Shown piece by piece: positions 9,936 to 32,635 of a stretch of 64,000 bases of DNA (within the stretch, counting starts at the first letter, position 1; each line of letters begins with the position of its first letter). The translations under genes were made by a program, and so were the position numbers. Origin of the DNA: Gammaproteobacteria bacterium (GTDB lineage Bacteria; Pseudomonadota; Gammaproteobacteria; Pseudomonadales; Azotimanducaceae); assembly GCA_031385325.1 (NCBI GenBank), contig JANNBJ010000123.1:6771-70770 (forward strand), in the 5' to 3' direction. The notes under the pieces were generated by a model, which was not told where the DNA came from, did not search any database, and worked only from the letters and a program-made list of their open reading frames with translations.

Positions 9936-9984
9936 ACACCTGCAGTGCAAAATGGGCTGACTACCACGTGAAACGGAACTGAAG

Positions 9985-11720: not shown

Positions 11721-11865
11721 CTGGCAGTCCCGGGCGCTGAACCAACACTTACAAGTCACTAACAGCTTTCCAGACGGTGGGCTGGCTCGCGTGATCCTCA
11801 TCACAGATGCGTTTGACTCGGCTTCATACACTGCCTGCGACTCGGGACATACCAGAGGCGCTGGG

Positions 11866-14075: not shown

Positions 14076-14549
14076 CTATGGGGACTGATCCTTAGCAGAA
14101 TGGTCAGGCGTCCGCTCCTCGGGTTTGCCCCGCTGGCGGACGACTTTGTCGAGCTGACTGCCGATGTGGGTTCCGACATGTTTCAGCTGGGGATTGCTGT
14201 GCAGCTCGGCAAACACCTTCTTTTGCAGGGGTTCGAGCAGCTTGTCAGCCGTGTCACCCTGTTGGTGTCCGAACAGATTGATCCAGGCTTCCGTGCGCCG
14301 GCCAAACTGAAGAACCGATTCCAACGGGCGATCTGCGTCTGGACCACCACGAACAATTCCGACTGTGCCGGCAATCAACGAAACGGGAACCAGTACAACA
14401 TCACGAATTCCGTCCATCACCAACTTGAGTTGAAAGACCATCAATCGCCACAGCAGATGCGCCCGAGTCAGACTCCCAGGAACCATGAGGGCTTGAGACT
14501 GATCTACTGTTTCTTCGGCCTTGGGTTCATCCGGATTATCCATGATCAA
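14076..14549 (-). CDS. Hypothetical membrane protein (157 aa)
   Basis: The start ATG overlaps the stop of the upstream sugar transferase (ATGA at 14546-14549). It has an acidic N-terminus and then a hydrophobic stretch (LLWRLMVFQLKLVMDGIRDVVLVPVSLIAGTVGIV). I recognised no family. Confidence 0.5.
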   Translation of the reverse strand: MIMDNPDEPKAEETVDQSQALMVPGSLTRAHLLWRLMVFQLKLVMDGIRDVVLVPVSLIAGTVGIVRGGPDADRPLESVLQFGRRTEAWINLFGHQQGDTADKLLEPLQKKVFAELHSNPQLKHVGTHIGSQLDKVVRQRGKPEERTPDHSAKDQSP

Positions 14550-15949
14550 CGTGCCCCTTCACCAACCAGTACCACTTCTACAGTCTGCAGCATAATGATC
14601 AGATCCAGAAACAGACTCTGATTCTTGAGGTAGTACAAATCGTATTGCAGCTTTTCCTTGGCATCGGAAACGGTGGTGCCATAGGGATAACAAAGCTGTG
14701 CCCACCCAGTTATGCCCGGTTTGATGCGATGTCGCTGCTCATAGTAGGGGATCTCTCTGGCAAACCGGGCTACGTGAACCGGCTGCTCTGGACGAGGCCC
14801 GACAAAACTCATTTCTCCACGAAGCACATTAAACAGTTGCGGTAACTCATCAATCCGCGCCTTGCGTATGAAGCGGCCAACTCGGGTCACTCGAGGGTCA
14901 TTATGCAGCGCAAATTCGCTGTCGTTGTCGGTCACATCGGGACGCATGCTGCGGAACTTGTAGACACGAAAACCGATAGCCCCCCGGCCGACTCTTTCTT
15001 GCCGATACAGCACGCTGTGTTGCCCGCGACTTTCAAGAAATATACACATCGCTGTGAGCAACATGATCGGCATGGTCAACACCACCATCACTGAGGCTGC
15101 GACGATGTCAAAAACGCGCTTGTTGATGCTGCGCAGCCGATTCGTAACAAATCCGTCGGAGAACGCAAGCCAGGTTGGCCGCAGGATATCGACGTCGAGT
15201 TTGCAGGCTTCTCGCTCGAAAAATTCCTGAACATCGCACACTTCAATGCCAGACAGACGACAGTCAACAAGATCATCGACAGGGACTGTGCGGTCCTCTT
15301 CGTAACCATCGACGGCGACCACGATTTCATCAATCTTCTGTTCGCGGCAAAAATCCAGCAGGGAGGAGGGTGGTGATATCACGGGCACATCGTGATCGCG
15401 GACAACATTCTTGGCCGGATCCAGATCTATGAAACCGAGCAGTACAAACGCTCGACGGTCAGCCCTCCGTCTCATTCTGGTGGCAATCTTCAGGGCACGT
15501 CGGCCGGCGCCCAGTACGATGATCCGGCTCTTCAGCGCATCTTCAGACAGGAACAGGAACACGAACCACCGAAAGATAACCAGTGCCGCGAAGCCTTCAA
15601 TGACCGACAGAACAAGCACGCCGCGGGGCATCGCCAGTTGAGGCAAAAAGAGGTAAGCAACCAGAATGAGGACGGTGCCAAGAAGAAAGATCGCAACCGC
15701 CGTACGCAGGGTCATCCCGGTCAGTCCTTCGCGTATGCGCGACTCGTAAACTCCCATGGCGGCCATGGCCCCGACAATCGTGAATCCGAAAAACACTGAG
15801 GTCGGAAGCCAATTCTGCAAATCGGGTAAAAACTGATAGCGGCTGAAAAAACCCAGATATCCGCAGAGCGTCAGTAGAAAAACCTCAGCACCAGCCATGT
15901 ACAGAAACGGCGTGTGGATGTAATGGCGCAGCACGCGAATATGCGGCAT
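14546..15949 (-). CDS. Polyprenyl-phosphate sugar-phosphate transferase (bacterial sugar transferase family, WbaP/EpsB-like; resembles the PEP-CTERM-associated subfamily)
   Basis: C-terminal catalytic motifs YKFRSM and [24 protein letters not shown]-terminal TM bundle and a central Rossmann-like linker ([10 protein letters not shown]). The N-terminus [12 protein letters not shown] resembles the PEP-CTERM-associated subfamily, from memory. Confidence 0.9.
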
Positions 15950-16127: not shown

Positions 16128-16143
16128 CATAATATATATTATG
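16128..16143. promoter_or_regulatory. Perfect 16-bp AT-rich palindrome CATAATATATATTATG in the AT-rich region upstream of the priming transferase gene
   Basis: Read directly from the sequence; the reverse complement is identical. It lies in the only strongly AT-rich stretch of this region, about 180 nt upstream of the ATG at 15949. Confidence 0.4.
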
Positions 16144-16169
16144 CGTCATTTAGGTCGACAAGCGTCACT

Positions 16170-16448
16170 GTGACTCCGCGCGCGGCATTCGCTCGGTGGA
16201 CCATCGACAATCCGTCCATGCACGAAACCGATCCCATCGAACTTGAACTCAAATCAGAAGCTGAGCGTATGAGCGTCCGCTTCTCTGGCGCCCCCGTGGT
16301 CATTGTGCTGGCTGGCGATAAATCAGCTGACATCCCACGCACGATCACAACGTCTGCTTCCTCGACGCCACTTCGGTTGCGGGACCTGCTAGGCATCCTG
16401 CAGACAGCAATCCAGACCGAAAGCTGGAAGCACTTCAGAAACTGGTGA
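16170..16448 (+). CDS. Hypothetical small protein (76-92 aa)
   Basis: This ORF has ordinary-looking codon usage, and an ATG at 16218 is an alternative start. An antisense 211-aa ORF competes with it. I recognised no family. Confidence 0.3.
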   Translation: MTPRAAFARWTIDNPSMHETDPIELELKSEAERMSVRFSGAPVVIVLAGDKSADIPRTITTSASSTPLRLRDLLGILQTAIQTESWKHFRNW

Positions 16449-16830
16449 AGTTCTTTTCGCCACTGGTCAAAGCCGCCAGCGCCAGATACGCGTTGGTTAG
16501 CGCGAGCATCAGGATGACCACCCAGGTTGCCAGCAATGCAGGCATCGATTGGCCTGACCACTTGCCTAACTGACGAACCAGCGCACGGACGTGAACAACC
16601 TTGGCGGCGACCAACAACATGGCGCACACATGCAGCCAGATAGTAGGTGCACCAAGCAGTTCTCCAAGCAACAACATCAGCAATGCCGTCGGCGCGTCGC
16701 CTGCAATCTCCGATCTGTGCATCAACGGTATGCGCAACGTTCTTGCGAAAATCCATGCGCGCCATTGAGCCCATGCCAACAACAGCACCAGCACGCTCGA
16801 ATATAGGGATGTGATCACTGGCACGGTCAT
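16435..16830 (-). CDS. MAPEG-family-like small inner membrane protein
   Basis: 131 aa with four hydrophobic helices. The size and pattern (..EIAGDAPTALLMLLLGELLG...HVCAMLLVAAKVVH) recall YecN/MAPEG proteins. The assignment is tentative. Confidence 0.5.
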   Translation of the reverse strand: MTVPVITSLYSSVLVLLLAWAQWRAWIFARTLRIPLMHRSEIAGDAPTALLMLLLGELLGAPTIWLHVCAMLLVAAKVVHVRALVRQLGKWSGQSMPALLATWVVILMLALTNAYLALAALTSGEKNFTSF

Positions 16831-16980
16831 GTTGCGGGAAGCTGGTCAGACTCTCTCATGTAACGTGTTTGGCCTGGCAGTGTAAAACCTGATGGATGGA
16901 CTTGCCGGCGACCGCGTCTCATCAATGGTAATGCGCAGTGCTTTGCCACCGTTGAGTGGATTGTCAAAAGGAAGTTGCTT

Positions 16981-17793
16981 ATGACCCTGCCGACTGGAAG
17001 CGGACTGAAGAACACCATCGTCATTGGCATGCCTCGCTCCGGGACCAGCATGACCGCAGCCATTTTCGCCAGACAAGGATATTTCCTTGCAGCTGACACC
17101 GACGAAGAACTGCGCCCAGGCGATGAACATAATCCTGCAGGGTACTTTGAAGCCGCAGGCCTCGTTGATCGTAACGTGCACTTGTTCAGACGGGTTGGCT
17201 ATACCGCTCACAATTCCTGGCTGTTCCAGCCGATCACGGATCAACAAGCTGACCAGCTACACCTGCTTGAGCGTACACACACCGACGCTCAATTCGTCAG
17301 TACCTATGAACAACACTCACCCTGGTTGTGGAAAGATCCCCGCCTCTGTTACACGCTCGGCTATTGGTGGCCGCTGCTCAACCCTGATACCACGCGTGTC
17401 CTGGTGTTACGCCGAAGACCAGAGGAAACATGGAACAGCTTTCTCCGCCTGGATTGGCGCGAATACGATGAGGACGCACGCGCTGATGTCTACCAGAGAA
17501 TCAATCATCATCTGTCAGCTGCGATGCAAACCATCGAACGATTGGCTATTCCTCATATCGTGGTGAACTACGACGAATATTCCGAGGCGCCACTCGAAGT
17601 GGCCGACCGTATCAACGGGTGTATGGGTCTGCAGTTGGACGTCGACGCACTGGGCTTTGATGGAAGCCTGAACTCAACTACCCTGCCTCGCCGGTTAGGT
17701 ACGTTTATTCAAAAGCAGCGCTCAAGATTGGGGGCATTGTTACCCAGGCCTGAACGCGCGGCTAAACAGGCCGGTCGGAGCTCAGCGGCTTGA
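16981..17793 (+). CDS. Sulfotransferase family protein
   Basis: 5'-PSB-like loop IGMPRSGTSM near the N-terminus and a WLWKDPR ... VLVLRRRPEETWNS segment resembling the 3'-PB region. The ATG at 16981 follows an AAGGAAG SD, whereas the track start is a TTG at 16975. Confidence 0.7.
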   Translation: MTLPTGSGLKNTIVIGMPRSGTSMTAAIFARQGYFLAADTDEELRPGDEHNPAGYFEAAGLVDRNVHLFRRVGYTAHNSWLFQPITDQQADQLHLLERTHTDAQFVSTYEQHSPWLWKDPRLCYTLGYWWPLLNPDTTRVLVLRRRPEETWNSFLRLDWREYDEDARADVYQRINHHLSAAMQTIERLAIPHIVVNYDEYSEAPLEVADRINGCMGLQLDVDALGFDGSLNSTTLPRRLGTFIQKQRSRLGALLPRPERAAKQAGRSSAA

Positions 17794-19350
17794 ATCCGCA
17801 AACACCATCTGCAAGATTTGCTTGCGATCATATTTGCCGTTGGGCGTTCGTGGAAATGGGTCGGTCGTGCATTTCAACGTTCTCGGCAGCATGTATCCGG
17901 GCACTGCCTGCTTGAGAAGAGCAAGGACGTCATTCGAGTGCAATCCTGATCTGGTACTGACCAGAGCGCCGATACCTTCCTGCGCCGCATTCTCTCCACT
18001 TTGGAAAACCACAACAGCCTCGTCAACGTCATCCAGCGCCTGCAGGTGCGCCTCGATTTCACCCAGTTCGATACGATGACCGAGATATTTGATCTGCTGG
18101 TCAGCACGCCCTTGGAACAGTAAGGCGCCATCTTCCCGCATACGTACCAGATCTCCAGTGCGATAGAGCCGGTCAGGAAAACGAGACGAAGGATGTTGTA
18201 CAAAGGCCTGGGCCGTCTTGTCTGCATCTCCAAGATAGCCGTATCCCACGGATAACCCTCGTACCCAAAGCTCACCTGCGGAACCAGGGGATTGCGAGAG
18301 TTCTCCGTTTTCAAGTGCAATGAACACTTCCATATTCGGTCTCGCCTTGCCAATGGGCACCGGTTCATCGCCAGGCGGCGTAGTTACGACATGATAAGTA
18401 CAGTCGACGGTGATCTCTGTTGGACCATACATATTGGTGAAGCGAACTTCCGGAAAGAGATTCATCCATGCCGTCAGCACGTCTGGTTGAACCACTTCTC
18501 CGGCAAACACCAGTTCGCGAAGCTCTGGAAACATACCAGCTCGAAGTCGTCGGGATTTCAACAAAAGTGTCAACACAGAGGGGACACAGAAAAATACTGA
18601 TATGGCCCGATCCCTGAGCCAGCCAGCCAAACGGGGAACCACCGAATTCAATTCTGGCGGCACCAGATGTAACGTCGCGCCCGCAGCAAATGCGGTATAG
18701 AGATCAAATGTCGAGTTGTCGAAATACAGCGGCGCGTGATTGGATATCTGATCCTTGGCGGTGATCTGATATTGATGCACACACCAGTCGATGTAGTCGA
18801 CCACCGCCTGGTGCGAGATCATGACCCCTTTTGGATTGCCCGTGGATCCGGACGTGAACAGTACATAAGCAATATCCACTGAAATGGCTTCGTAGCGAAT
18901 TGGCGTGAGCATCACTTCAACCTGATGAGCATCGTCAACGTCGATCAACGTCAATCCGGACACCATGGGCTCATATTCGGTGGTCGACAATTTCGCGCGC
19001 CCCGCCCGATTCACCAGCATCAAACCAGATCCGCACGCCGCAACGATGCCGGCAACGCGTGCAGCAGGTGACTCGGTATCAATGGGTACGTAGGCTCCAT
19101 CGTTGCGCAAAACACCCAGTATCGAACAGATTGCATCAACACTCTTGGGCATGAACACGGCAACACAATCCGCTCGACGCATGCCGGCAGAGCGCAATCG
19201 GTGCGCGATCACCGACGCCGCCTGATCAACCTGCAGATAGGTCAGCTGTTCCGATTTACACGTCACCGCGATCTTGGCAGGATCATTGGCAAGCGCTCGA
19301 TCAAAATAGTGCTGCACAAGCCAGGGTTTATGTGGTGCCAGCACGCTCAT
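17782..19350 (-). CDS. Stand-alone adenylation (AMP-forming) ligase, NRPS A-domain type (cf. exosortase-A-associated acyl-CoA ligase / DltA-like)
   Basis: Core motifs LFTSGSTGNPKGVMISH, NMYGPTEITV, GELWVRG..GYGYLGD, YRTGDLVRMREDGALLFQGRADQQIKYLGHRIELGEIE and PRTPNGKYDRKQI. FDNS occupies the FDxS position. The ATG at 19350 is preceded by GAGGA. Confidence 0.9.
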   Translation of the reverse strand: MSVLAPHKPWLVQHYFDRALANDPAKIAVTCKSEQLTYLQVDQAASVIAHRLRSAGMRRADCVAVFMPKSVDAICSILGVLRNDGAYVPIDTESPAARVAGIVAACGSGLMLVNRAGRAKLSTTEYEPMVSGLTLIDVDDAHQVEVMLTPIRYEAISVDIAYVLFTSGSTGNPKGVMISHQAVVDYIDWCVHQYQITAKDQISNHAPLYFDNSTFDLYTAFAAGATLHLVPPELNSVVPRLAGWLRDRAISVFFCVPSVLTLLLKSRRLRAGMFPELRELVFAGEVVQPDVLTAWMNLFPEVRFTNMYGPTEITVDCTYHVVTTPPGDEPVPIGKARPNMEVFIALENGELSQSPGSAGELWVRGLSVGYGYLGDADKTAQAFVQHPSSRFPDRLYRTGDLVRMREDGALLFQGRADQQIKYLGHRIELGEIEAHLQALDDVDEAVVVFQSGENAAQEGIGALVSTRSGLHSNDVLALLKQAVPGYMLPRTLKCTTDPFPRTPNGKYDRKQILQMVFADSSR

Positions 19351-21079
19351 CTCCAATATCCTCAACGATTGTTCTGATCAGTTCATCGCGCTCATGAACT
19401 CGTTTGAAAGTGTGATCGGCACCTTTGAATGTTCGAATCTGCAGCATCTTGGACCTGGACAACAGCGACAGGCATCGGTTTCCCGCTGTTCTCAGGATCT
19501 CAAGCCCTGGGTCACGCTCTGCAAAATAAAACCGCAGACGGGAACCCGAAGCCGCAATTCGGAGAAGATCTTGTGTGAGCAACGGCGGTTCACGCAACCC
19601 CAGATACTGAGCGAGTTCTCGAGAACGTTTCATGAGTCGACTGGTGATTGAACCGAGTAGATGCTGTATCAGGAGCAAGTAGTCGATGTCGCCTGTAAAA
19701 AGTCTCTTCCAGTGCTGCCAATCCCTCGACGCTGATTGATACGCTTTTGCCTGTTGCAGGTTGCTGTACTCACTCGGAATCTCCAGTGACATGCCTTCAC
19801 GCCACTGGAAAGTCAGGGGATTGATGAGTATGAGTTCAATCGGAAATGAATCATCCGACTGTCTCGCCAAATCAAATGCGGCGTATGCTCCAGCGCAGAG
19901 TCCGGCCATCAAGATACGTGAATAACCTTGTTGGCGAGCCCAGGACAGAATGGATTGAAGGTCTCCGCTGGCGGAATCCGGATACGGCGTAATCGCTTCT
20001 GGCGTCGGATCCACACCGCCTGATTCGAACTGCGTCTGCAGGTCGACACTGTCGCCGAGATTCGCAAGATCGTAACGAAGGCAGTCGATATGTTGTTCGG
20101 AGAGTGTTCTGGCGAGGTCAACGTACAGTCGATTGGGGCCGACATGGTGAGCAGAGCCGCCATTACTCATCAGCACGATACTCTTCGAATCAACCGCGTG
20201 AGTGAGAATCGCGAACAACGTGTTGATCCGCAGCACGCTTTCAGCGACGGCCGGCACTACGCCGGGGAGTTCGGTTGACAGCGCGGAACTCTCGTCAACC
20301 ACCGGGTTTAAAACTTCGACATTCGGGTACTTCGAGAATAACCACTGCACAGCAGAATCGATGAACTTCAGGGGAATACGGGTATTGTGTGGTTCACGGA
20401 ATGCAGAGACAAATTCATCAGAAGTAGCATTTTGCAGTGAGGCAGCACGTTGTCTGATCGAATTGGCGAGTGTCACATCTGCCGGTCGATCAACTTTTTC
20501 CACCAGCAAAACATGTCCTGTTCGTGATTGATTGTCCTTGACCTGCAACCCTTCGATGGCTTGTTGGAGCGGGTCATCAAAAACCAATCCACCACTTTCG
20601 AGAACCGCCCGTCCAGATGCGGACGGATCGATTTTTCCGAGGACCTTCAGTTCTCGTATGAAGGTCCGACCAGAGGAACAGGGATTCCACAGGATGATAC
20701 CCTCCTCCGCCTGGGCACTTTCCAGCACAAGCAAGGCAGAAGCACGAACACCGACCAGCACGACACTTGCCAGACCACGTGTCTGCAACAAATAGCTACG
20801 GGCGCGCTCGATGTCTTCAAGCCAGGTCTCCACGCCGACCCTTGCGCCTTCGGTCGAATTTCCTGTGCCGCGTAAATCAGGTCGAATTACGAAGTAACCG
20901 GCTGCCGCCGCCGCACATGCGAGGGCGCGTAATGCGCGGTAACCATGGGTGTACTCATGTCCCAGAGACGGGACAATGATGACGCCCGTCGATCTCTGTT
21001 CGGTTGTCTTCCGAGGCATATGCAGATGCGCAAATGTCGCTCCACCTTCCCTGCCAATCCAGAAAGACTGCTGTGTCAT
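19328..21079 (-). CDS. Fusion of two alpha/beta-hydrolase-fold domains (resembles exosortase-A-associated hydrolase 2 + hydrolase 1)
   Basis: The N-terminal half reads VIIVPSLGHEY...IRPDLRGTGNS...VVLVGVRASALLV, with Arg at the nucleophile-elbow position. The C-terminal half reads IVLMSNGGSAHHVGPNRLYVDLART...LRYDLANLGDS...ILMAGLCAGAYAAF, with Cys at the elbow (GxCxG). The start overlaps the GH2-like stop (ATGA). Confidence 0.75.
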   Translation of the reverse strand: MTQQSFWIGREGGATFAHLHMPRKTTEQRSTGVIIVPSLGHEYTHGYRALRALACAAAAAGYFVIRPDLRGTGNSTEGARVGVETWLEDIERARSYLLQTRGLASVVLVGVRASALLVLESAQAEEGIILWNPCSSGRTFIRELKVLGKIDPSASGRAVLESGGLVFDDPLQQAIEGLQVKDNQSRTGHVLLVEKVDRPADVTLANSIRQRAASLQNATSDEFVSAFREPHNTRIPLKFIDSAVQWLFSKYPNVEVLNPVVDESSALSTELPGVVPAVAESVLRINTLFAILTHAVDSKSIVLMSNGGSAHHVGPNRLYVDLARTLSEQHIDCLRYDLANLGDSVDLQTQFESGGVDPTPEAITPYPDSASGDLQSILSWARQQGYSRILMAGLCAGAYAAFDLARQSDDSFPIELILINPLTFQWREGMSLEIPSEYSNLQQAKAYQSASRDWQHWKRLFTGDIDYLLLIQHLLGSITSRLMKRSRELAQYLGLREPPLLTQDLLRIAASGSRLRFYFAERDPGLEILRTAGNRCLSLLSRSKMLQIRTFKGADHTFKRVHERDELIRTIVEDIGDERAGTT

Positions 21080-23517
21080 TTTCTGCCGAGCTCAGGGACA
21101 CGAAGTTCACGACGGTTATTCGCAGGCTTGAGGCGAAGACTGGGTACGCCTGTATAGCCGCGGTCCATGAGAACTTCGATTTGACGAGAAACACCGGGGA
21201 TGATGTGAACGTAGTTATCTATGCACTCAAACCCCGCTGATTCGAGACGCGTCCACTCAAGCAATCTGTCTGATTCCAGTTGCAGGCGGACCGCGCCTGA
21301 GTGATCAACCAGGCAAGCAGTTAACTGAATGTCCGCTGACGTCTCGATCCCGGCAGATCCTACCGTTGCGACATGTTGGACGGAGGTTCCGTTGGACAAT
21401 AACAGATCAGCGGCCACGGCTCTGAACGCTGGTGGACCAAATCGATAGGACCAGGTGGTGTCTTGAAACCGATCAAAACAACCATCAACCGAGAGAGTCT
21501 GTGCGGATCGAGGCGGCAGTACGATGTTGCGTACAACCTTTCCGCCGGCACGGCCGTCCAAAAGCACCAGCGTTATCGTCAGAACTCCGGACAGCTCGAT
21601 GCATCTTTCATTGATGAGGTGAACATTGTGACCATCAAAAATTTCGTCAGTAACAAGAACCTGTACGGGGTGAAGTACACTTCGAACCAGGTGATACGCG
21701 GGTTTCGGACGCCCGAGTGCATCAATAAGCCCCCAACCCGCGCCAGGCCTGACGTCGTGCATCATCCAGATCAGAGCGCCTTGACACAGTGACCGTGTGG
21801 CACGCCACCGAGCAAATACTGCAGCCATGGCAACGCCGCTGGCGAGCCGGGATAGCTCGAAATACCTTGGCAAATCGTGCATTCGAAGGTCAAGTGCATT
21901 CACCGAGAACAGTTGTTCTGTGTAGTGATCACGAATGTCGTCGAAGTCCCAGCCAACACCGTCGTCTCTCGGAGTACCTGACTTCCAACTTGCGCCAGTG
22001 GGCGAAGGTAGTGAAGATCCGAACAGCTCATTCATGGACGAGGGGTCGGGCAGGTTGGCAAAGCCCAGACATTCACTGGCGAAACGAACCTGTTCGACAC
22101 TTCGATCGTCAACCGATCGGCGATACGCACCTACCCCAAAGAAGCTGCTGATTCCTGCGGACAGATGAGTAGGCAACGTTCCGAAACCAGGCGCTGAGGG
22201 AATGTACGTCTGACTGGGAAAGAGCTCGGCGCTCCACGCCTGGATAGTGGTTGTGAAGAGCCGCTGCGTTCGTTTTTCGTCGTGCAAACCCAACAGCGTT
22301 GCCTGTTGTTCGGCGTCACTGTTCCCACAAATTACCGCGAGACTGGCTCGCCACGCCAGTCGACTCGACTGCCACTCAAGCTCACGATACACGCCATCGG
22401 TAAAGCCATCAGAATCAGGATAGGCCATATTCGCGAACGGCAAGTCCTGCCAGACCAGAATGCCCAGCCGATCGCACAAGTCGTAGAACACGTCGCTCTC
22501 ATAACAGGAAGTGCCGACAACACGGAGCATGTTGAATCCTGCTTCGCGTACCTGAAGCAAGCGTTCTTCCAGATCAAACTCCGTTTCAACTTCCGCTGCC
22601 TGTAGCGCAACCCAACAAGCACCTCGACAGAAAAAAGGCACTGTGTTAACGGAAAACTGACCCGTATCCTGATCGAAAGACACCGACTTGAATCCCACTC
22701 TGCGCTCAAGAGTCACGTTCGGATCCAGCGTTATCGTGATGTCGTGTAGAACAGGTTCACCATGGGTATGCGGTAACCACCGATCAAGATCGCTGCAATC
22801 CAGCTGAAGCTCGGCGCTGCGTTGTCCATCGTCATCGAGGGAAACAGGAGCGGTGTTTTTTCGACCGCCGATTGTGACCGTCAGCTCGTCCACACATGCG
22901 GTTGTTTTCACGTGCACGCGAAGTTGCGCCCGCTCGTTATCGACCAACGTTGTCATCGTGACTTTTGTGGTCTCCTCGATCGGCTCAACCGTCACCGGAC
23001 CCCGAATCCCTACCAATGGCGTACTGTTGAACCAACCGGTGATACGACCGGCCAGAGACACTCGGTGACTACGCAGATGCTGAATGGTCACCAGGTTGGT
23101 GCGCCAACGCGTGCGGCCGTGCGACTGCATCAGATGCGTGGTCAAGGAGGGAAAGTGAAAGGCGATCTGATGCGGCGATCCGCGTCCCTCGACCGGAATC
23201 TGCCATGGACGGAAAGCATTATCGAAAACTGCAGCTTGGGCTCCATCCAGCCAGACATTGGCATGTCCGAACACGGAGGGAAAGGTCATGATCGACAATA
23301 CTGGAGATCGAAATTGCGCTAACAACCACCAATCAGACTGGTCGGGTTGCGCACCCCTGACAAGAGAACCAACCGTCAGCAGATCAGTCGATCCACACCA
23401 GACTTGAGTTGATTCATTCAGCTCTGAAGGACTTGTGACAATTCCGACATCACAACGCCAGAGTCTCCACGTCATATCGGCATTGCCATCGAACGACGTA
23501 GTACGCTCGCACGGCAT
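21076..23517 (-). CDS. Glycoside hydrolase family 2-like protein (beta-mannosidase-like)
   Basis: DVFYDLCDRLGILVWQDLPFANMAYP and FASECLGFANLP match the beta-mannosidase-type GH2 core. The usual GNNE acid/base stretch reads ICGNSDAEQ. The start ATG overlaps the upstream stop (TGATG). Confidence 0.8.
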   Translation of the reverse strand: MPCERTTSFDGNADMTWRLWRCDVGIVTSPSELNESTQVWCGSTDLLTVGSLVRGAQPDQSDWWLLAQFRSPVLSIMTFPSVFGHANVWLDGAQAAVFDNAFRPWQIPVEGRGSPHQIAFHFPSLTTHLMQSHGRTRWRTNLVTIQHLRSHRVSLAGRITGWFNSTPLVGIRGPVTVEPIEETTKVTMTTLVDNERAQLRVHVKTTACVDELTVTIGGRKNTAPVSLDDDGQRSAELQLDCSDLDRWLPHTHGEPVLHDITITLDPNVTLERRVGFKSVSFDQDTGQFSVNTVPFFCRGACWVALQAAEVETEFDLEERLLQVREAGFNMLRVVGTSCYESDVFYDLCDRLGILVWQDLPFANMAYPDSDGFTDGVYRELEWQSSRLAWRASLAVICGNSDAEQQATLLGLHDEKRTQRLFTTTIQAWSAELFPSQTYIPSAPGFGTLPTHLSAGISSFFGVGAYRRSVDDRSVEQVRFASECLGFANLPDPSSMNELFGSSLPSPTGASWKSGTPRDDGVGWDFDDIRDHYTEQLFSVNALDLRMHDLPRYFELSRLASGVAMAAVFARWRATRSLCQGALIWMMHDVRPGAGWGLIDALGRPKPAYHLVRSVLHPVQVLVTDEIFDGHNVHLINERCIELSGVLTITLVLLDGRAGGKVVRNIVLPPRSAQTLSVDGCFDRFQDTTWSYRFGPPAFRAVAADLLLSNGTSVQHVATVGSAGIETSADIQLTACLVDHSGAVRLQLESDRLLEWTRLESAGFECIDNYVHIIPGVSRQIEVLMDRGYTGVPSLRLKPANNRRELRVPELGRK

Positions 23518-24485
23518 CAGACAGCACCGGAACGTAACGCGTCAATTCCAGCCTTCCAGGCGCTGCTCATCTGGTCGAGCGGCGACAGGTCCAGTGTTTT
23601 GTTTCGTGCAATTGCGCGTGCCAATTGGAATTGCAATGACCGGGCCTGCTGGGCAATCTGCAAAAATCGTGTCGCCGCGTCACCAGCCACCCAGGAACCC
23701 CGTGCCACTAGCCAATCAACGTGACTAGCCAGTAACTCAAAACAGGCACCCAGCTGTCGAAGCGTTGCGAAGGCATAACGATGAAAATAATCCATATCGT
23801 GGTTTTCACGCATCACCTGCAGCTCGGATTCCAGGCTGGCTGCATAGATGGAGATTGGATTGTCGGAAGGCACTCGCGCCAGTTCTCGACGCAACAGTGT
23901 TGCTGCTGCCGATGCCAAAGAATCAGTTCGCTCAGGATGCGACCAGGCAACACGTTCGACGAAGGGAGGTAACCAGGAATGGCCACGTTTCGAACCCGGC
24001 AACCAAAGACACTGGTAGTCGCTGCCTGCAAGTTCATAACAACCTCGCCCATGCAGATACTGCATGTCCTGCGTTGCTGGCGCCATCGCAAGCACAGCTA
24101 TGGTGGTCTTGACGTGTTGTTGCTGGTAGGACGAGCCACGTGTGTCGGGCAGGTAGAACGAGTCCGCTTCGATCAGGACGGGGTTTCCCTGTTTGAGCTG
24201 TTCAACGACGTGAAGATCCAGTTCTTTCCAGGGATTCAGCTCCTGAATGTCTGCACCAAACAGAAAACGCAGATCTTCGTCGTTGAACTTGCAGAATGTC
24301 CACTGATCACCTTCCCAACGGGTTGAAGCGGTAACACTCAGTGCAGCCAAGGGCTCGTGACCAAAGGCATGCAACAATTCAATAACTACATCGAGATAGC
24401 AGTTCGTTTCATCCCACACTCGGCTGCTGCCATGGATAGGGTGGGACTGGTGAGAGTAACTTTGAGGCAAAGCAGAAACAGACAT
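23517..24485 (-). CDS. DUF1839-like protein of unknown function
   Basis: SRVWDETNCYLDVVIELLH...WEGDQWTFCKF...EADSFYLPDTRGSSYQQQHVKTTI matches my recollection of the DUF1839 signature. The ATG at 24485 lies 1 nt after the ACAD-like stop codon. Confidence 0.6.
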   Translation of the reverse strand: MSVSALPQSYSHQSHPIHGSSRVWDETNCYLDVVIELLHAFGHEPLAALSVTASTRWEGDQWTFCKFNDEDLRFLFGADIQELNPWKELDLHVVEQLKQGNPVLIEADSFYLPDTRGSSYQQQHVKTTIAVLAMAPATQDMQYLHGRGCYELAGSDYQCLWLPGSKRGHSWLPPFVERVAWSHPERTDSLASAAATLLRRELARVPSDNPISIYAASLESELQVMRENHDMDYFHRYAFATLRQLGACFELLASHVDWLVARGSWVAGDAATRFLQIAQQARSLQFQLARAIARNKTLDLSPLDQMSSAWKAGIDALRSGAV

Positions 24486-24486
24486 G

Positions 24487-25662
24487 TCATCGCTGCGCAA
24501 GCTGCATGGCCGCGTTGTGAGAACGAATTCGATCGTTGTTGACCATCAGCATGGCACCGTACGCATCCCGTAAATGACGGCCAAGCGCGGACTCGTGATC
24601 ATTACGATAGCCATTTACGCCCGTGATCATCAGCGCCTTGCCGACGATGTCGACCACGGCCTCTGAACACACCAGCTTGATGTTGTTCATCGCAATGCCG
24701 AAAGAAAACGCAGTTGTCTTCTGCCAGGACTTTGTAGTGACGATGTTCTGATAACGAATAATGGCATCGTGCAAAGTGCTTCGCATCTTGAACAACGCCT
24801 CATCGAGTTCTGCCAGACGAAGTTGTGTCGTGGGTGGAACCTCCGCCTTCCTGGCAGAAGCCCGGACAGCACGGCGCGCGATACTGGCTGCATCCTGAGC
24901 TAACCCCAACCACAGCGAACCCCAGAGCAAATGAGCTACTGGCTGCATGGTCTGAGACAGAATCTGAGAAAACGGCACTGGCTGGATGTGCTCCCTGGGA
25001 ACATCCGCAATCAGATGGAAGCCAAGACTACAGGTGCCGCGGAACCCCAGGCTGTCCCAGGTTGAGATAGGATCAAGTGACACGTCCTTCTTCTCGACCA
25101 GGACATGAACCTGGTCGTTACCCGTAGCTTCCGGATGACTGCGGGCAGTGACCATGATCGCGTCAGCCTGACTGCCGTACGAAATCACGGGAGCCATCTT
25201 GTCTATTCGAACTCGACGCCCATCTGCACTCACTTCCGCCGCACAAACACTCGTCCCCAAATCTCCACCGGTGCCAATTTCCGTCGTCGCAGAAGCCAGC
25301 AACAACTGGCGATCCGTGATTTTCCGCAACAAGTCGGCTTCATAAGAGCTGTTACCTGCGTGATGTACAAGGCAGGCAACCTGGATCTGATGCATCGCAA
25401 AAATCATTGCCGAAGACGCGCAGTAGGCACCCAGCTTTTCGGTGATTGCACACAGGGACTGAAAGTCCACTCCCATTCCGCCGTGCGAAGCAGATATATA
25501 GGCACTCAGCAGCCTGTGCTGTCGCATGGCCGAAATCGCCTCTTCCGGGAACCGAGCCTTGGCATCCACGTCTGCTGCATGGACACCCAGCACATCATTG
25601 CCAATTCGTTCAACAATTGAGTCAATGGCGGGCGCGGTCGTGACAATCCTGGGTTGCGTCAT
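24487..25662 (-). CDS. Acyl-CoA dehydrogenase-fold flavoenzyme (probably acting on a carrier-tethered substrate)
   Basis: 391 aa with ACAD architecture (FPEEAISAMRQHRLLSAYI.., ATTEIGTGGDLG, RGTCSLGF). The C-terminal stretch RDAYGAMLMVNNDRI aligns where MCAD-type enzymes have the YEGT catalytic Glu. Confidence 0.85.
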   Translation of the reverse strand: MTQPRIVTTAPAIDSIVERIGNDVLGVHAADVDAKARFPEEAISAMRQHRLLSAYISASHGGMGVDFQSLCAITEKLGAYCASSAMIFAMHQIQVACLVHHAGNSSYEADLLRKITDRQLLLASATTEIGTGGDLGTSVCAAEVSADGRRVRIDKMAPVISYGSQADAIMVTARSHPEATGNDQVHVLVEKKDVSLDPISTWDSLGFRGTCSLGFHLIADVPREHIQPVPFSQILSQTMQPVAHLLWGSLWLGLAQDAASIARRAVRASARKAEVPPTTQLRLAELDEALFKMRSTLHDAIIRYQNIVTTKSWQKTTAFSFGIAMNNIKLVCSEAVVDIVGKALMITGVNGYRNDHESALGRHLRDAYGAMLMVNNDRIRSHNAAMQLAQR

Positions 25663-25741
25663 GGAACGTGCTTCTCTATCCGCTGATCCTCAAATCTTTG
25701 TTTGGGTCCAGATGCGAGTGTAGACAACAATGTCGTGATCA

Positions 25742-25996
25742 TCAGGCCGTGATCACTCTGACGGCTTCTGCAATGGCCTGTATGCTCTGAAACGTCTCTC
25801 TCGCCAGCATTTCCTCCGGGAATTCGCAATCGAAAAAATCTTCGACGGCCAGCATCAGGTTGACCGTATTGAGCGAGGTCAAACCTGCATCGTAGAGATC
25901 GTCGGTGTCATTCAGAGAATTCACTTCGACGGCGAGTTGGCCGCATTCTGCAAGCGTCTGCCTGATGCACTCCACCAAGTCGGCTCTGTTCTGCAT
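25742..25996 (-). CDS. Acyl/aminoacyl carrier protein
   Basis: 84 aa, acidic, with the phosphopantetheine-site-like sequence DLYDAGLTSLNTVNLMLAVE. The ATG at 25996 follows a GGAG SD; the track start is a TTG at 26008. Confidence 0.8.
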   Translation of the reverse strand: MQNRADLVECIRQTLAECGQLAVEVNSLNDTDDLYDAGLTSLNTVNLMLAVEDFFDCEFPEEMLARETFQSIQAIAEAVRVITA

Positions 25997-26118
25997 GACG
26001 AACTCCAAATCCTTGTACGGTGCCGTGGTCGGTAACCGGCCTCGTAGAAATACTATCGTTGACCCGGGTTGTTGAATGCGATGACGGTCTCAGAGGGGCG
26101 GACTACAACTGCGAATCC

Positions 26119-27108
26119 TCAGAATGTCTGAGCGAAATCACGTAATACCGTGGGTTCAAGTGTAGCTGCATGACTGGTCAGAAACCGGTTCAGCGCGTCA
26201 AGGCTGTTTCGAGTCAAGGACTTCGGATGGCCCATGACGTTGAATATTGTGTGACGCCGTTCTCGGGTTTTCCGGAAACTGTGTTCAAGCAAATTGGCGC
26301 GTGCGCCATCGATTGAAGCGACAGTGTCTTCCGCGCTGAACAATTTACGAAGGTAGTATTCCTTCGAATTATTCAGCGCTTGACCATCACCCAACGGCCT
26401 GTCGCCAGCCTGTTTGAACAGCTTTCTCCACAACGCTTCCCAGTAGAACAACGGCGACACACGATAAGCCGATATCGGAATCTCCAGAAAACGGCCTGAA
26501 CTTTCTACGTTTAGTGGATCGCCATCGAACGTCCAGCGATCAAGATCCGGCGCAGCGGAAAAATCGAATTCTCGACCCGGGTTAACACTTTTGCCGCGAG
26601 TGTAAACCGTCGAGTCAATGTGTATGCCGGCACCCTTCAATGGACCTGCGAGCGACTCGAACGGCTGCAGACACCATCCACCAGCACGGAACGCTGACGG
26701 CCGAATGCCAGTTATCGAACCGAGTAAGCCAGCGTAACGTTCGAGTATTTCTGTTATCGCCGGACACGAAAAACTCTGTAGTCGATAACGCGTGGTATCG
26801 ATATCCCACTTGCCGTTCGACCAGTGAGAGTCTTCCCAGTGTGGATGGACGTGAAGTTGTATGTCATGGCCCCGGCTCACCAACTGCTGGAGTTGGGTCG
26901 CTATCCTCTCCAGTTGGAACTTGTGCAGTTTTTCCGGGCTGTGGGACAACCGGTCCAGGTAACCTGCGTCAACGAACAGTGTGACGAGGAACCCATGTCG
27001 CTCGAGCTCATCTGTGAGCACTCGTGTCGGATAAATCAGGCACCCATCTGGAGAACCTGTGTTCGATCCAAAGAACAGTTCGTAGTCGAGCGTCAGAAGA
27101 AACTTCAC
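26119..27108 (-). CDS. Polysaccharide deacetylase-like / carbohydrate-esterase-like protein (divergent)
   Basis: The N-terminus KFLLTLDYELFFG and the HVHPHWEDSHW His-rich segment resemble divergent deacetylase-superfamily proteins from capsule loci. I prefer the GTG at 27108, 1 nt after the upstream stop codon. Confidence 0.6.
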   Translation of the reverse strand: MKFLLTLDYELFFGSNTGSPDGCLIYPTRVLTDELERHGFLVTLFVDAGYLDRLSHSPEKLHKFQLERIATQLQQLVSRGHDIQLHVHPHWEDSHWSNGKWDIDTTRYRLQSFSCPAITEILERYAGLLGSITGIRPSAFRAGGWCLQPFESLAGPLKGAGIHIDSTVYTRGKSVNPGREFDFSAAPDLDRWTFDGDPLNVESSGRFLEIPISAYRVSPLFYWEALWRKLFKQAGDRPLGDGQALNNSKEYYLRKLFSAEDTVASIDGARANLLEHSFRKTRERRHTIFNVMGHPKSLTRNSLDALNRFLTSHAATLEPTVLRDFAQTF

Positions 27109-27109
27109 T

Positions 27110-28147
27110 TCAGTACTCGAGCACCGCGGCAAGTCGCTGCTTGTAACTCAGGAGTCCGCAAGAAAGCGCCTCGACATGTGCGGCGTTGAACCGCAGAGGC
27201 AAGAAGACGCGTCGAATGGTCAGCAGGTCACAACCTACCGCATTCAGCCCGGGTTCCACGGAAAAAGCCGCGTCGTACCCGGCGGCAGCAACCGCTTTGC
27301 GGGAGCCATCATCCCAATCACCGTTCGGATAGCAGAACATCCTGCACGGCTGTCCGGTCATGGCTTCCAGCTCAAGCTTTGATTGGGTCAGTTGATACGC
27401 GCGGGCGTCGTGATCGAGCTTGTCGATTCGCATGTGGTCAATGGTGTGACTGCCAACATCAATGGCGCCGCGCGCGACAGCGCCCCTCAGTTCCTCGTTG
27501 GAAATGGTCGCCGAGACCGGGTCACTGGCCTGGAAGCTGCCCAGGGACTTTCCCGAGTCAGCTTCCAGTGCATCGCATGTTTCGCCAAAAAAGTCGTGGA
27601 AACGTTGATCATGCCAACCCTGTCGTTTTGCATAACGCCGAAGCGACTGGTACTCGCTGTGCATACCACATCGATCCCCGGGTTCGAAGGTGAACGTTCG
27701 ACCATCAACTTCCAGTTTCCAGAGACGATCGATCTGCTGAATCGCATAGTCAAATCGGTCAAACCAGAACGTTCGAGCGTTGCTTAGATAGCCGGTAGTG
27801 ACGAATAACAACGGGCGAATGTTACGTGCTTCAAGAACCGGCAAGGCAAGATCAAGATTGTTTCTATAACCATCATCGAAGGTCAACAGTACCGGATTGT
27901 CGATGCGCAGGTCGCCGCGCAGGTGAGCTATGGCGCCGGCTGCGTCCACCCAATTGTGGTACCTGGAAATCGCATCTATCTGCGCTGTAAACGTCGGTAC
28001 ATCCACTTGTTGTCGCAAAGGGTCCCAAAGCAAGTCCCCACGAACGGGCGCAACCCCGTGAACAGTCAGCACGGTCAGCGATGAACGTCGCGCCTGGCGG
28101 ATGAAGCTGAAGAGACCCAGCTGACGCATCACATCAAGCGTGGTCAT
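27110..28147 (-). CDS. Polysaccharide deacetylase (NodB homology / CE4)
   Basis: Motif 1 LLTFDDGYRNN, motif 2 GSHTIDH and FCYPNGDW. The start overlaps the asnB-like stop (ATGA). Confidence 0.85.
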   Translation of the reverse strand: MTTLDVMRQLGLFSFIRQARRSSLTVLTVHGVAPVRGDLLWDPLRQQVDVPTFTAQIDAISRYHNWVDAAGAIAHLRGDLRIDNPVLLTFDDGYRNNLDLALPVLEARNIRPLLFVTTGYLSNARTFWFDRFDYAIQQIDRLWKLEVDGRTFTFEPGDRCGMHSEYQSLRRYAKRQGWHDQRFHDFFGETCDALEADSGKSLGSFQASDPVSATISNEELRGAVARGAIDVGSHTIDHMRIDKLDHDARAYQLTQSKLELEAMTGQPCRMFCYPNGDWDDGSRKAVAAAGYDAAFSVEPGLNAVGCDLLTIRRVFLPLRFNAAHVEALSCGLLSYKQRLAAVLEY

Positions 28148-30141
28148 CGTTTGACCTGATACTGACGTTCGGTTTGCCCGTTCTTCCCGTCATTGATTTT
28201 TTCTTGAGGCACTTTCGTAACAGGCTGTCTGACACGATCAAACGGCGCTGGAATCACCGAATCGTTGATCGTCGAATCGAGTCGGCTACCGTCCTCTATG
28301 TGCCTCCGGTACCAGTATTCAAGCGACAGTACGCTCCACAGTTGCATGGAGTAGTCCTGACGGCCGCGTAGATGGTCCTGAACCAATCGGTCAACCTTGT
28401 CGGGATCAAGAAGTCCGGTGGCTGCAACCTGACGCGGATCCAGAATCCGGGTCATCCACGGACGCAGTGCTGATTTGAACCATAGTCCTACAGGCGCATC
28501 GAATCCGGTCTTGGGTCGATCCACGATTGATGCAGGCAGGTATCGGCTGGCGACGTCCTTGAGAATTCGCTTGGTTCTGCCTTTGTGAACACGATAGTGG
28601 GCTGGAAGTCCCGCCGCAAATTCAGCGACCCTGAAGTCACAAAGCGGCGAACGCACTTCCAGGCTGTTCGCCATGCTCATCCGATCCATATACGTGAGCT
28701 GGAACTCCGGCAGATAGGCTGCGGTGTCGACGTCAAGAACTCGATCATGGAAGTTACCGGCTTTTGCCAGACAGTCGGCCACATAGTGATCCGCAACAAA
28801 GTTCCGATCAACGCCGAGTATCAGCCCCGAGCCTACTTCGGGCGCCAGTTGATTCAGCCACTGCCGATATCCTTCAATCTGCGTCTTGCCAAGTGCTCGG
28901 CTGAATCGTTTGGCTCGACGGATGAAACGACTGCCATCGGTCGAATCACTGAATCGACCGAGCAGGTGTTGCCCCATCAGAGCTATGGGTCCGGGCACCC
29001 TGGACGACATCGCCAACAGGCCAAGTTTGCTGTGGCGTGGATACCCATGAAACAGTTCGTCGCCTCCAGTACCACCCATTGCAACCTTGACATCCTTGAC
29101 CACTTCGGCACATAGCAGATGAACGAGCATCGAAGTTGGCTCGCCATTGGGTTCATCATAGTGATCAAGAATCCGCGGGATCAGGCCAGCGGCCTGTTGG
29201 GCTGAAACGACAAAATTCCGGTGTTCGGTGCCAAGGTGGGCCGCGACCGTTTCTGCATAAGGAAGCTCGCTGAAACCACGCGCTGACTCATCAAAACCGA
29301 TCGAATACGTCCGAACCCTGGTGCCCCCCTGTTGCATCAATGCGCTGATCAACGAAGAGTCCACCCCACCTGACAAGAACGCAGCAACTTCGACGTCACT
29401 TTTGAGGCAATAACGGATGGCTTCCTTGAGTTCACTATCGAGCTGATCCACGGCATCTTCGTAGTCGATCTCGATGGGTTGTCGAGGCAGCAGCGACCAG
29501 TATCTGCGCAGATGCAGTTGACTACCCTCATAGATAGCGATTTCACCTGGACACAGCTTGCGGATGCCCATGAATGCCGTGGCCGGAGCCGGAATGTAGC
29601 CCAAGGCGAGAAAGGTCGCCGCACTTTCCCGGTCAACGGAACGATTAAGGGGAGTGGTCAGCAGACATTTTATCTCCGACGCAAACGTCAGCCCCGAGCT
29701 GCTCAGATGGTAGTAAAGTGGTTTCTCGCCTAGCCGGTCTCGCGCCAGTAACAGTCGTTGCCGTTTAACATCCCAGACCGCAATCGCAAACATGCCTCGC
29801 AGATGTTCCGGAAATGAATCTCCGTATTCCTCGTACGCATGCACGATGGTTTCGGTGTCCGAATGGGTGCGGAACACATGGCCCCGTGCCTGCAATTCCC
29901 GGCGCAAGTCTTCGTAGTTGTAGATTTCGCCATTGAAGACTGTCCAGACGTCGCCAGTTTCGTTGGCTATCGGCTGACTGCCACCCGCTACATCGATGAT
30001 CGCCAGTCTGACCATGCCGAGAATGGCTTGGCCAAACTGTCTGACATCACTGTGATCCGGACCTCGATAACGCATGACGTCACACATTCGGTGGACAGCT
30101 GCAACACTTGAGTTACCGACAGCTCCAGCGATTCCGCACAT
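28144..30141 (-). CDS. Asparagine synthase (glutamine-hydrolysing)-type amidotransferase
   Basis: N-terminal nucleophile MCGIAG, the Ntn glutaminase domain and the PP-loop AAFLSGGVDSS. Trimmed to the ATG at 30141 so that Cys is residue 2. Confidence 0.9.
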   Translation of the reverse strand: MCGIAGAVGNSSVAAVHRMCDVMRYRGPDHSDVRQFGQAILGMVRLAIIDVAGGSQPIANETGDVWTVFNGEIYNYEDLRRELQARGHVFRTHSDTETIVHAYEEYGDSFPEHLRGMFAIAVWDVKRQRLLLARDRLGEKPLYYHLSSSGLTFASEIKCLLTTPLNRSVDRESAATFLALGYIPAPATAFMGIRKLCPGEIAIYEGSQLHLRRYWSLLPRQPIEIDYEDAVDQLDSELKEAIRYCLKSDVEVAAFLSGGVDSSLISALMQQGGTRVRTYSIGFDESARGFSELPYAETVAAHLGTEHRNFVVSAQQAAGLIPRILDHYDEPNGEPTSMLVHLLCAEVVKDVKVAMGGTGGDELFHGYPRHSKLGLLAMSSRVPGPIALMGQHLLGRFSDSTDGSRFIRRAKRFSRALGKTQIEGYRQWLNQLAPEVGSGLILGVDRNFVADHYVADCLAKAGNFHDRVLDVDTAAYLPEFQLTYMDRMSMANSLEVRSPLCDFRVAEFAAGLPAHYRVHKGRTKRILKDVASRYLPASIVDRPKTGFDAPVGLWFKSALRPWMTRILDPRQVAATGLLDPDKVDRLVQDHLRGRQDYSMQLWSVLSLEYWYRRHIEDGSRLDSTINDSVIPAPFDRVRQPVTKVPQEKINDGKNGQTERQYQVKR

Positions 30142-30223
30142 TACCGACGTCCTGGATGTAGCCAACAAATCGATTGGCCTGTATAGCGGAATTGATTTTG
30201 CTCGCTTCTTGTTCTGAACATGT

Positions 30224-32618: not shown

Positions 32619-32635
32619 GCGTTGTAATTCGCTTG

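Follow-up and report, generated by a model that had tools for sequence, protein, structure and literature searches.

An aminoacyl-carrier-protein cassette with an exchanged loading enzyme in a gammaproteobacterial exopolysaccharide locus

The 64,000-nucleotide stretch of contig JANNBJ010000123.1 (assembly GCA_031385325.1, a gammaproteobacterium of the Azotimanducaceae; hereafter the window) contains six consecutive minus-strand genes within an exopolysaccharide (EPS) locus. They encode a carrier protein (ACP), an acyl-CoA dehydrogenase-like (ACAD-like) protein, a DUF1839 protein, a glycoside hydrolase family 2-like (GH2-like) protein, a fused double alpha/beta-hydrolase and an adenylation-domain (A-domain) ligase. 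The cassette is built around the PRK07081 aminoacyl carrier protein of the PRK07080 amino acid:[carrier protein] ligases (Bll0957/Atu2573). Comparison of the encoded proteins across genomes identifies the ACP, ACAD-like, DUF1839, GH2-like and double-hydrolase genes as its conserved core, and the A domain as a non-orthologous displacement of the loading enzyme, resembling aminoacyl-tRNA synthetases (aaRS-like), that most related cassettes carry. By a modest measure we favor the reading that the six genes form a ligase-swapped aminoacyl-carrier-protein cassette that would pass, by thiotemplated chemistry, a small amino-acid-derived acyl group from the carrier to an amine, the acceptor in the window probably being a de-N-acetylated sugar of the EPS; we infer the acceptor and the chemistry from gene content and setting. 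The kind of cassette is already known, and the swap of the ligase and the integration into an EPS operon are what is new here.

To survey the cassette across genomes, a one-genome-per-species scan was made with a DUF1839 alignment, which gave 361 relatives. Eighty loci were examined with 10-kb flanks, and genes were counted by BLAST of the window proteins against all open reading frames (ORFs) of each locus followed by clustering; many of the contigs are truncated. DUF1839 was found in 70 of the 80 loci and the GH2-like gene in 70, the two co-occurring in 70, and the ACAD-like and double-hydrolase genes were found in 62 and 59 loci, respectively. The order is fixed as ACP, ACAD-like, a gap, DUF1839, GH2-like and hydrolase. 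The loci span Acidobacteriota, Planctomycetota, Chloroflexota, Verrucomicrobiota, Gemmatimonadota and Beta- and Gammaproteobacteria, and the close relatives of the window locus are gammaproteobacterial or Pseudomonadales metagenome-assembled genomes (MAGs). The gene set is more than a product of chance, because the same order recurs in most of the 80 loci from unrelated phyla. Clustering of these loci revealed no further gene family conserved beside the cassette, including any exporter or regulator, indicating that the cassette is self-contained. The initial annotation of the window had taken the ACAD-like, DUF1839 and GH2-like genes for insertions into a set of ligase and hydrolase genes, a view that the survey reverses, as these three belong with the ACP and the double hydrolase to the part that is conserved. 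The combination was also thought to be undescribed. However, the supplement of a 2023 survey of papain-like enzymes (PMC10318531) already shows DUF1839 genes adjoining genes for GH2, amino acid-[ACP] ligase, ACAD and ACP, and the ligase-carrier pair has crystal structures (3MEY and 4H2W).

The gap in the conserved order is occupied in 57 of the 80 loci by a gene of about 308 amino acids, located between ACAD-like and DUF1839, whose product is a PRK07080 amino acid:[ACP] ligase (443 bits) that matches the Bll0957 structures 3MEY and 4H2W with E values of 1e-76 or better. This aaRS-like ligase is absent from the window and from nine other loci (L003, L004, L005, L017, L022, L053, L054, L074, and L080), in all of which the ACAD-like gene abuts DUF1839; a tblastn search of the 64-kb window with the ligase of locus L026 (Rhizobacter sp. 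OV335) did not find it (best E value 1.3). Each of the nine loci has an orthologue of the window A-domain ligase (50–84% identity), whose gene sits behind the hydrolase, ahead of the ACP or close by, and no such orthologue was found among the 80 loci in those that carry the aaRS-like ligase. The ACPs of the two cassette types are 49–65% identical. With the loading enzyme displaced and the carrier and its partners kept, an aminoacyl-S-carrier would thus be what the rest of the cassette needs. In the co-occurrence survey suggested initially for DUF1839, ACAD-like, ACP and ligase genes, the first three keep company across genomes, whereas the A-domain ligase is the variable part, often with the aaRS-like enzyme in its stead. 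A neighbor-joining tree of DUF1839 places the A-domain-type loci in several groups among the aaRS-type loci, the tree being too weak to tell one swap from several. A third cassette type, with neither kind of ligase, is present in three loci from betaproteobacterial MAGs (L008, L011, and L051). The region upstream in L051 (positions 905–5026) encodes a TIGR03098-like ligase that scores 472 bits where the cut-off is 592, together with a second, separate ACP, a protein resembling NAD synthase and an unknown protein of 370 amino acids. The Bll0957-type ligases are the class II aaRS-like enzymes that reportedly aminoacylate carrier proteins, in work by Mocibob et al. from 2010 and 2013. According to a 2022 review (PMC9437257), the amino acid:[carrier protein] ligases use Gly and Ala and have no known biological role, and our literature search on Bll0957, Atu2573 and the aminoacyl carrier protein found no functional study.

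The window ligase passes the amino acid adenylation model TIGR01733 (379.7 bits, cut-off 317.4) and falls below the DltA equivalog TIGR01734 (306.7 bits, cut-off 559.85). The core motifs of nonribosomal peptide synthetase (NRPS) A domains and the Asp of an FDNS sequence had been noted initially, and both are upheld by alignment with GrsA, in which FDNS lies at residues 209–212 and the equivalents of Asp235 and Lys517 are kept. The same alignment gives the pocket code DNFFVAMVDK in the window and DNFF[VIL]AMV[DC]K across the orthologues. This common pocket, together with the retained Asp235 and Lys517, therefore points to one shared substrate, an alpha-amino acid. The predicted lining by Phe, Phe and Met fits a small side chain, and Gly or Ala as the substrate is only an analogy. 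An apparent PDB match to the glycine module of LgrA (459 bits) was set aside as a guide to substrate choice, being the sum of two A domains (220 + 237 bits) with no specificity signal. The GLTSL phosphopantetheine-type site described earlier for the carrier is present as DAGLTSL within a PF00550 PP-binding domain. The carrier passes NF005480 (PRK07081) with 102.9 bits against a cut-off of 72, and among solved structures it is closest to the aminoacyl carrier proteins 4H2W_C and Atu2571 (2JQ4; E value 2e-16). With an alpha-amino acid A-domain ligase, a dedicated carrier and an ACAD-fold enzyme all present, the earlier description of the cassette as a carrier-protein acylation machine stands. 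Two Sfp-type 4'-phosphopantetheinyl transferases with 4PPT_N and ACPS domains are encoded elsewhere in the window (59882–60604 and 61842–62681, both on the minus strand), near an NRPS gene (49825–53766, plus strand) whose A-domain region passes TIGR01733 and whose product aligns end to end with EntF. Either transferase could activate the cassette ACP.

The DUF1839 protein (PF08893, E value 4e-106) points to the transfer step. In its AlphaFold (AF2) model (pLDDT 88) a papain-like N-domain, in which a helix begins with Cys29, is joined to a helical C-domain. Cys29, in the motif ETNCY, is invariant among the homologues, as are several His and Asp residues. A Foldseek search with the model matched only CtaG, CcbD and AziU3/U2, over 18 PDB chains (probability 1.0, E values 6e-7 to 1e-4, TM 0.51–0.66), with sequence identities of 9–15%, and a weak match to BtrH_N was observed for 12 of 19 DUF1839 sequences. 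CtaG is a papain-like ligase dependent on a peptidyl carrier protein (PCP), which takes the acyl group from one carrier onto its own Cys and then forms an amide, and to which BtrH and AsbE are homologous; CcbD uses a PCP-bound amino acid to acylate an amino sugar (PMC12865890). DUF1839 has itself been classed as papain-like (PMC10318531). From the model, the DUF1839 protein is predicted to be a carrier-protein-dependent transacylase with Cys29 as its nucleophile. The transfer step postulated in the initial annotation gains a candidate enzyme in this way, as the structural comparison suggested there for DUF1839 gave specific matches to carrier-protein-dependent, amide-forming transacylases that include CcbD.

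The ACAD-like protein matches PF02771 (52.6 bits) and PF00441 (29 bits), both above the Pfam cut-off, passes none of the NCBIfam equivalogs, and is weakly matched by the RedW and PigA prolyl-PCP dehydrogenase models (E values 1e-9 to 1e-10). In this family an invariant MVNNDRI takes the place of the IYEGT seen in true dehydrogenases. The catalytic Glu base is absent from the positions of Glu376 in medium-chain acyl-CoA dehydrogenase (MCAD) and Glu254 in isovaleryl-CoA dehydrogenase (IVD), and a hand alignment puts Ala242 at the IVD position. Against the PDB, the family profile is about equally weak to true ACADs and to ACAD-fold oxygenases (DnmZ, nitrososynthase). The cassette had been described as a machine that tethers and oxidizes its substrate; the parts needed for tethering are in place, and oxidation is uncertain with an ACAD-like enzyme that has no canonical catalytic Glu. 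The GH2-like protein has weak GH2 matches that stay below all Pfam and NCBIfam cut-offs and aligns with beta-mannosidase 5N6U (E value 9e-41) and BtMan2A (1e-31), matches that point to a distant relative of the beta-mannosidases. Its nucleophile Glu482 is invariant in 70 of 70 homologues, and at the acid/base position 401, 65 of the 70 have Glu and the window clade has Asp. The AF2 model of the double hydrolase shows two alpha/beta domains (pLDDT 82.5). The N-terminal, TIGR03101-like half has an invariant Arg112 at the nucleophile position and is a dead half, and the C-terminal, TIGR03100-like half has Cys395, Asp523 and His556, of which the G393-x-C395-x-G397 motif and His556 are invariant and Asp523 nearly so. 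A fold search with this model matched nothing beyond esterases, lipases and thioesterases of a generic kind, and no specific relative such as CmaE, SyrC or PhaC was among them. Alpha/beta-fold enzymes with a Cys nucleophile, these three included, handle thioesters, and the idea of a Cys transferase comes from this parallel and from the invariant GxCxG motif.

The ORFs of all six genes were found where the initial annotation had placed them, consecutively on the minus strand, and family searches in Pfam and NCBIfam confirmed each of its domain calls (Table 1). Taken at full length, the ORFs of the ligase, DUF1839 and ACP genes start with TTG a few codons further upstream, at 19365, 24500 and 26008, respectively, and the ATG starts chosen previously agree with the N-termini of the homologues. 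Direct reading of the sequence bears out the four tight junctions reported before. The TGA of the ACAD-like gene and the ATG of DUF1839 are separated by the single base C (24485/24487), the stop of DUF1839 and the start of GH2-like share TGATG at 23517, the stop of GH2-like and the start of the hydrolase share ATGA at 21076–21079, and the hydrolase stop and the ligase ATG overlap by 23 nucleotides (19328–19350). The sole real spacers are the 79 nucleotides between ACP and ACAD-like and the 122 nucleotides upstream of ACP, and a simple terminator scan found nothing convincing in these spacers or at the gene junctions. The six genes are co-transcribed within the polysaccharide operon. A Sulfotransfer_3 gene (16975–17793, plus strand) runs toward the ligase gene and covers its stop with a 12-nucleotide overlap, making the ligase gene the last of its transcription unit. 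No signal peptide or transmembrane segment is predicted in the six proteins, all of which appear to be cytoplasmic, or in the two deacetylase-like proteins encoded upstream. On the other side of the Sulfotransfer_3 gene, an ORF of 211 amino acids (16139–16774, minus strand) has an odd composition rich in Arg, Ser and Ala and a 56% BLAST match to an ORF of locus L003; with no family matches it is probably not real in its present form, unless a different frame holds the true gene.

Table 1. Positions of the cassette genes and of the exopolysaccharide genes around them in the window
Feature	Position	Strand	Description
ACP	25742-25996	-	84-aa aminoacyl carrier protein, DAGLTSL phosphopantetheine Ser
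ACAD-like	24487-25662	-	391-aa ACAD-fold flavoenzyme without canonical catalytic Glu
DUF1839	23517-24485	-	322 aa, papain-like N-domain and helical C-domain, Cys29
GH2-like	21076-23517	-	813-aa beta-mannosidase-like protein, predicted cytoplasmic
Double hydrolase	19328-21079	-	583-aa fused double alpha/beta-hydrolase-fold protein
Ligase	17782-19350	-	522-aa stand-alone NRPS-type adenylation-domain ligase
Deacetylase-like 1	26119-27132	-	Directly upstream of cassette; no signal peptide
Deacetylase-like 2	27110-28147	-	Weak CE4/PgaB-type matches; no signal peptide
Upstream EPS genes	28144-39331	-	AsnB-like amidotransferase, Wzy-like polymerase, WecG/TagA glycosyltransferase, flippase-like, sulfotransferase, priming glycosylphosphotransferase, XrtA-type chain-length determinant
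WecG/TagA-family transferase	31648-32421	-	EPS locus
WecB (UDP-GlcNAc 2-epimerase)	39396-40517	-	EPS locus
XrtA/PEP-CTERM priming glycosyltransferase	14546-15949	-	TIGR03013, 515.6 bits against 393.35; downstream of cassette

The location of the cassette in an EPS operon, as proposed initially, is supported by the surrounding genes, which form a Wzx/Wzy locus of the XrtA/PEP-CTERM type and include two deacetylase-like genes that adjoin the cassette. The upstream EPS proteins pass TIGR03007 (323.3 bits, cut-off 278.85), TIGR03025 and TIGR00696, fall below the cut-off of TIGR03108, and include matches to PF04932 and PF13469. The locus encodes two priming polyprenyl glycosylphosphotransferases, one downstream of the cassette (TIGR03013) and one at 36326–37732 on the minus strand (the general TIGR03025). 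The presence of WecB and a WecG/TagA-family transferase implies that the repeat unit contains a beta-ManNAc(A) residue, and a link of this residue to the beta-mannosidase-like GH2-like protein is possible. A second Sulfotransfer_3 gene is located at 35356–36336 on the minus strand, and the occurrence of two such genes suggests a sulfated polysaccharide. The ends of the EPS locus are abutted by a type II secretion operon (3936–12477, plus strand; GspE, F, K, L and neighbors) and adjoined by a lipid-type cluster (40606–49330) with a pimeloyl-CoA-dehydrogenase-like ACAD, a second ACAD, an MsnO8-family luciferase-like oxidoreductase, a thiolase and a 738-amino acid protein with an HMG-CoA-synthase-like domain.

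Related settings are seen in cultured Gammaproteobacteria, as Cellvibrio, Reinekea and Saccharospirillum have the cassette in polysaccharide or exosortase loci adjoining deacetylases. In Reinekea, genes for an exosortase, a FemAB-like protein and deacetylases lie on one side, and genes for Acyl_transf_3, ACP, FkbH and a second double hydrolase on the other. A second thiotemplated unit follows directly downstream of the cassette in Reinekea blandensis (L084, 15058–20978), with genes for Acyl_transf_3, a second ACP, an FkbH-domain protein of the type that loads glyceryl-ACP, another fused double hydrolase, a GDSL lipase and the A-domain ligase. Similar units are found in L015, L022, L039, L067, L071 and L075, and an FkbH-like cluster in 12 loci. 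In exosortase loci, double hydrolases of this kind seem to accompany ACP-loading enzymes as a general rule.

In the reaction sequence that we propose for the cassette, the A domain, recognized by its family and by Asp235 and Lys517, would adenylate an alpha-amino acid, probably a small one, and load it onto holo-ACP. The ACAD-fold flavoenzyme, devoid of the Glu base, would then alter the tethered residue, either by oxidation of the amine to an imine or 2-oxoacyl group or by hydroxylation. The DUF1839 protein would take the acyl group onto Cys29 and hand it to an amine in the manner of CtaG, BtrH and CcbD. The Cys-Asp-His half of the hydrolase might conceivably be a second thioester-handling transferase or an editing thioesterase, and the GH2-like protein might bind or trim the sugar acceptor. 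As all six proteins appear to be cytoplasmic, the acceptor would be a nucleotide- or undecaprenyl-linked sugar, which in the Wzx/Wzy repeat unit could be de-N-acetylated by the two adjacent deacetylase-like enzymes.

Several observations weigh against this proposal. The deacetylase-like protein encoded directly upstream of the cassette has no match in the family libraries. The Stachelhaus code gave no call for the ligase substrate, the pocket agreeing with the known codes considered at 5 of 10 positions at most, and what was said above of the roles of the double hydrolase and the GH2-like protein is guesswork. The triad of DUF1839 is described as rearranged, to a non-canonical C-(T/S)-H (PMC10318531). 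When the 43 full-size loci (at least 18 kb) were surveyed for polysaccharide-type genes within 10 kb, 25 had at least one such neighbor, a raw count without background control, and 18 had none. In L082 (15440–17328), from a 9.3-Mb genome, two SQS_PSY (squalene/phytoene synthase-like) genes and one resembling phospholipase D come after an aaRS-type cassette, in a neighborhood that has housekeeping genes and lacks polysaccharide genes. It follows from L082 and the 18 loci that the cassette is self-contained and that its acceptor need not be EPS. The cassette could accordingly use thiotemplated chemistry to make a separate small glycoconjugate or a soluble metabolite, its place in the EPS operon reflecting co-regulation or chance insertion. 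A self-contained module that moves among unrelated contexts is in line with such a product, as are the structural relatives of DUF1839 (CtaG, CcbD and AziU3/U2, and by homology BtrH and AsbE), which all belong to small-molecule pathways. However, the window clade (L001, L003, and L004) keeps the cassette in the identical position, between the deacetylase-like genes and the priming transferase, every full-size A-domain-type locus has it among polysaccharide or exosortase genes (exosortase, deacetylases, Acyl_transf_3), and no exporter or regulator is conserved with it. We consider a small-molecule product, the main rival reading, possible and, on balance, rather unlikely.

The initial annotation had framed the cassette as the exosortase-A-associated set of a ligase, hydrolase 1 and hydrolase 2, with the usual pyridoxal phosphate (PLP) decarboxylase missing and the ACAD-like, DUF1839 and GH2-like genes added. 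The operon is indeed of the XrtA/PEP-CTERM type, and the ligase and both hydrolase halves do match TIGR03098, TIGR03100 and TIGR03101, these being their only hydrolase-family matches, with scores far below the cut-offs (243.4 against 592.35 bits for the ligase, 95.4 against 168.45 for the C-terminal half and 75.9 against 202.75 for the N-terminal half). Double hydrolases recur beside other ACP-loading enzymes, as with FkbH and ACP in Reinekea, and the two sets are therefore probably distant relatives. Against identity of the two, the ligase passes the amino acid adenylation model instead, the supposed insertions are the most conserved part and the ligase the variable one, and neither an exosortase nor a PLP decarboxylase is present among the scanned window ORFs of at least 300 amino acids, the absence of the decarboxylase being as previously reported. 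The frame is thus improbable. Even less probable is a catabolic or editing module in which the GH2-like protein and the hydrolases strip or recycle a sugar-linked substituent, as might be read from the two catalytic carboxylates of a retaining glycosidase and the intact Cys-Asp-His set, because an ATP-consuming ligase with a dedicated carrier is a biosynthetic signature, the known relatives of DUF1839 all form amide bonds, and the genes are translationally coupled to those of the loading enzymes.

The transfer of an amino-acid-derived acyl group to an EPS sugar, which we continue to favor, bears on a question that dates from 2010, since the amino acid:[carrier protein] ligases and their carriers have crystal structures and in vitro activity and are without an assigned role. 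That an unrelated A domain can take the place of the aaRS-like ligase while carrier and partners stay singles out the aminoacyl-S-carrier as the intermediate that is essential, and it provides a second enzyme family for identification of the substrate. The fold that DUF1839 shares with carrier-dependent, amide-forming enzymes points to the transfer step, and the gammaproteobacterial setting in polysaccharide or exosortase loci beside deacetylases points to a candidate acceptor. A bolder and distinctly tentative extension is that the aaRS-like ligase and the A domain interchangeably charge the same carrier and that the cassette is a thiotemplated pathway re-acylating de-N-acetylated sugars of surface glycans on the cytoplasmic face with an amino-acid-derived group, which would be a first role for the amino acid:[carrier protein] ligases. 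If true, our reading would account for how some amino-acid-derived N-acyl groups get onto bacterial polysaccharides.

The closest known system is that of the amino acid:[carrier protein] ligases themselves (Bll0957/Bsr0959 and Bll6282 of Bradyrhizobium, Atu2573/Atu2571 of Agrobacterium). Their carrier is of the same PRK07081 family, and the cassettes that contain these ligases have the same ACAD-like, DUF1839, GH2-like and double-hydrolase partners in the same order as the window. In contrast to these, the window has no zinc-dependent class II aaRS-like ligase, the gene of an unrelated A domain of the ANL superfamily sits instead at the cassette's far end, and the whole is embedded in an EPS operon. 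The second comparison is with the transacylases CtaG (closthioamide), BtrH (butirosin), AsbE (petrobactin), CcbD/LmbD (lincosamides) and AziU3/U2, which have the same bipartite fold of a papain-like and a helical domain as DUF1839, also carry a Cys at the N-terminus of the first helix, and are likewise encoded beside a stand-alone carrier and a loading enzyme. CcbD and BtrH acylate amino sugars or aminoglycosides. DUF1839 differs from these in its low sequence identity and reported triad, its activity being predicted from the fold, and its partners include the GH2-like protein and the double hydrolase rather than natural-product tailoring enzymes.

In the NodB/NodA/NodF and LpxC/LpxD systems, de-N-acetylation of a sugar is followed by ACP-dependent N-acylation. 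The window follows a similar logic, with deacetylase-like genes beside those of a dedicated ACP and a putative transferase, all of the products being predicted to be cytoplasmic. The transferase folds are unrelated, however, an amino acid rather than a fatty acid would be the source of the acyl group in the window, and the link between the deacetylases and the cassette is drawn from adjacency. DltABCD and AlmEFG use an A-domain ligase and a small carrier to decorate teichoic acid or lipid A with D-Ala or Gly. The window resembles them in having a stand-alone A domain, DltA-like in score (307–309 bits) and below the equivalog cut-off, with a dedicated carrier, and differs in having no MBOAT, DltD or AlmG-type transferase and in the addition of the ACAD-fold enzyme, DUF1839 and the GH2-like protein.

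The TIGR03098–TIGR03101 set shares with the window a ligase and two alpha/beta-hydrolase units in an XrtA-type EPS setting, and the best matches of the window hydrolase halves are hydr2_PEP and hydr1_PEP. In contrast to that set, the hydrolases of the window are fused, one half is inactive, a decarboxylase is lacking, and the ligase is an amino acid A domain. Finally, the ZmaJ/ZmaH/ZmaI and PltF/PltL/PltE triads each consist of an A domain, a carrier and an ACAD-like enzyme that acts on the tethered amino acid, and the same three-part logic is found in the window cassette. Its ACAD-like protein differs from theirs in matching no equivalog and in lacking the catalytic Glu, and the cassette is not followed by a polyketide synthase or NRPS.

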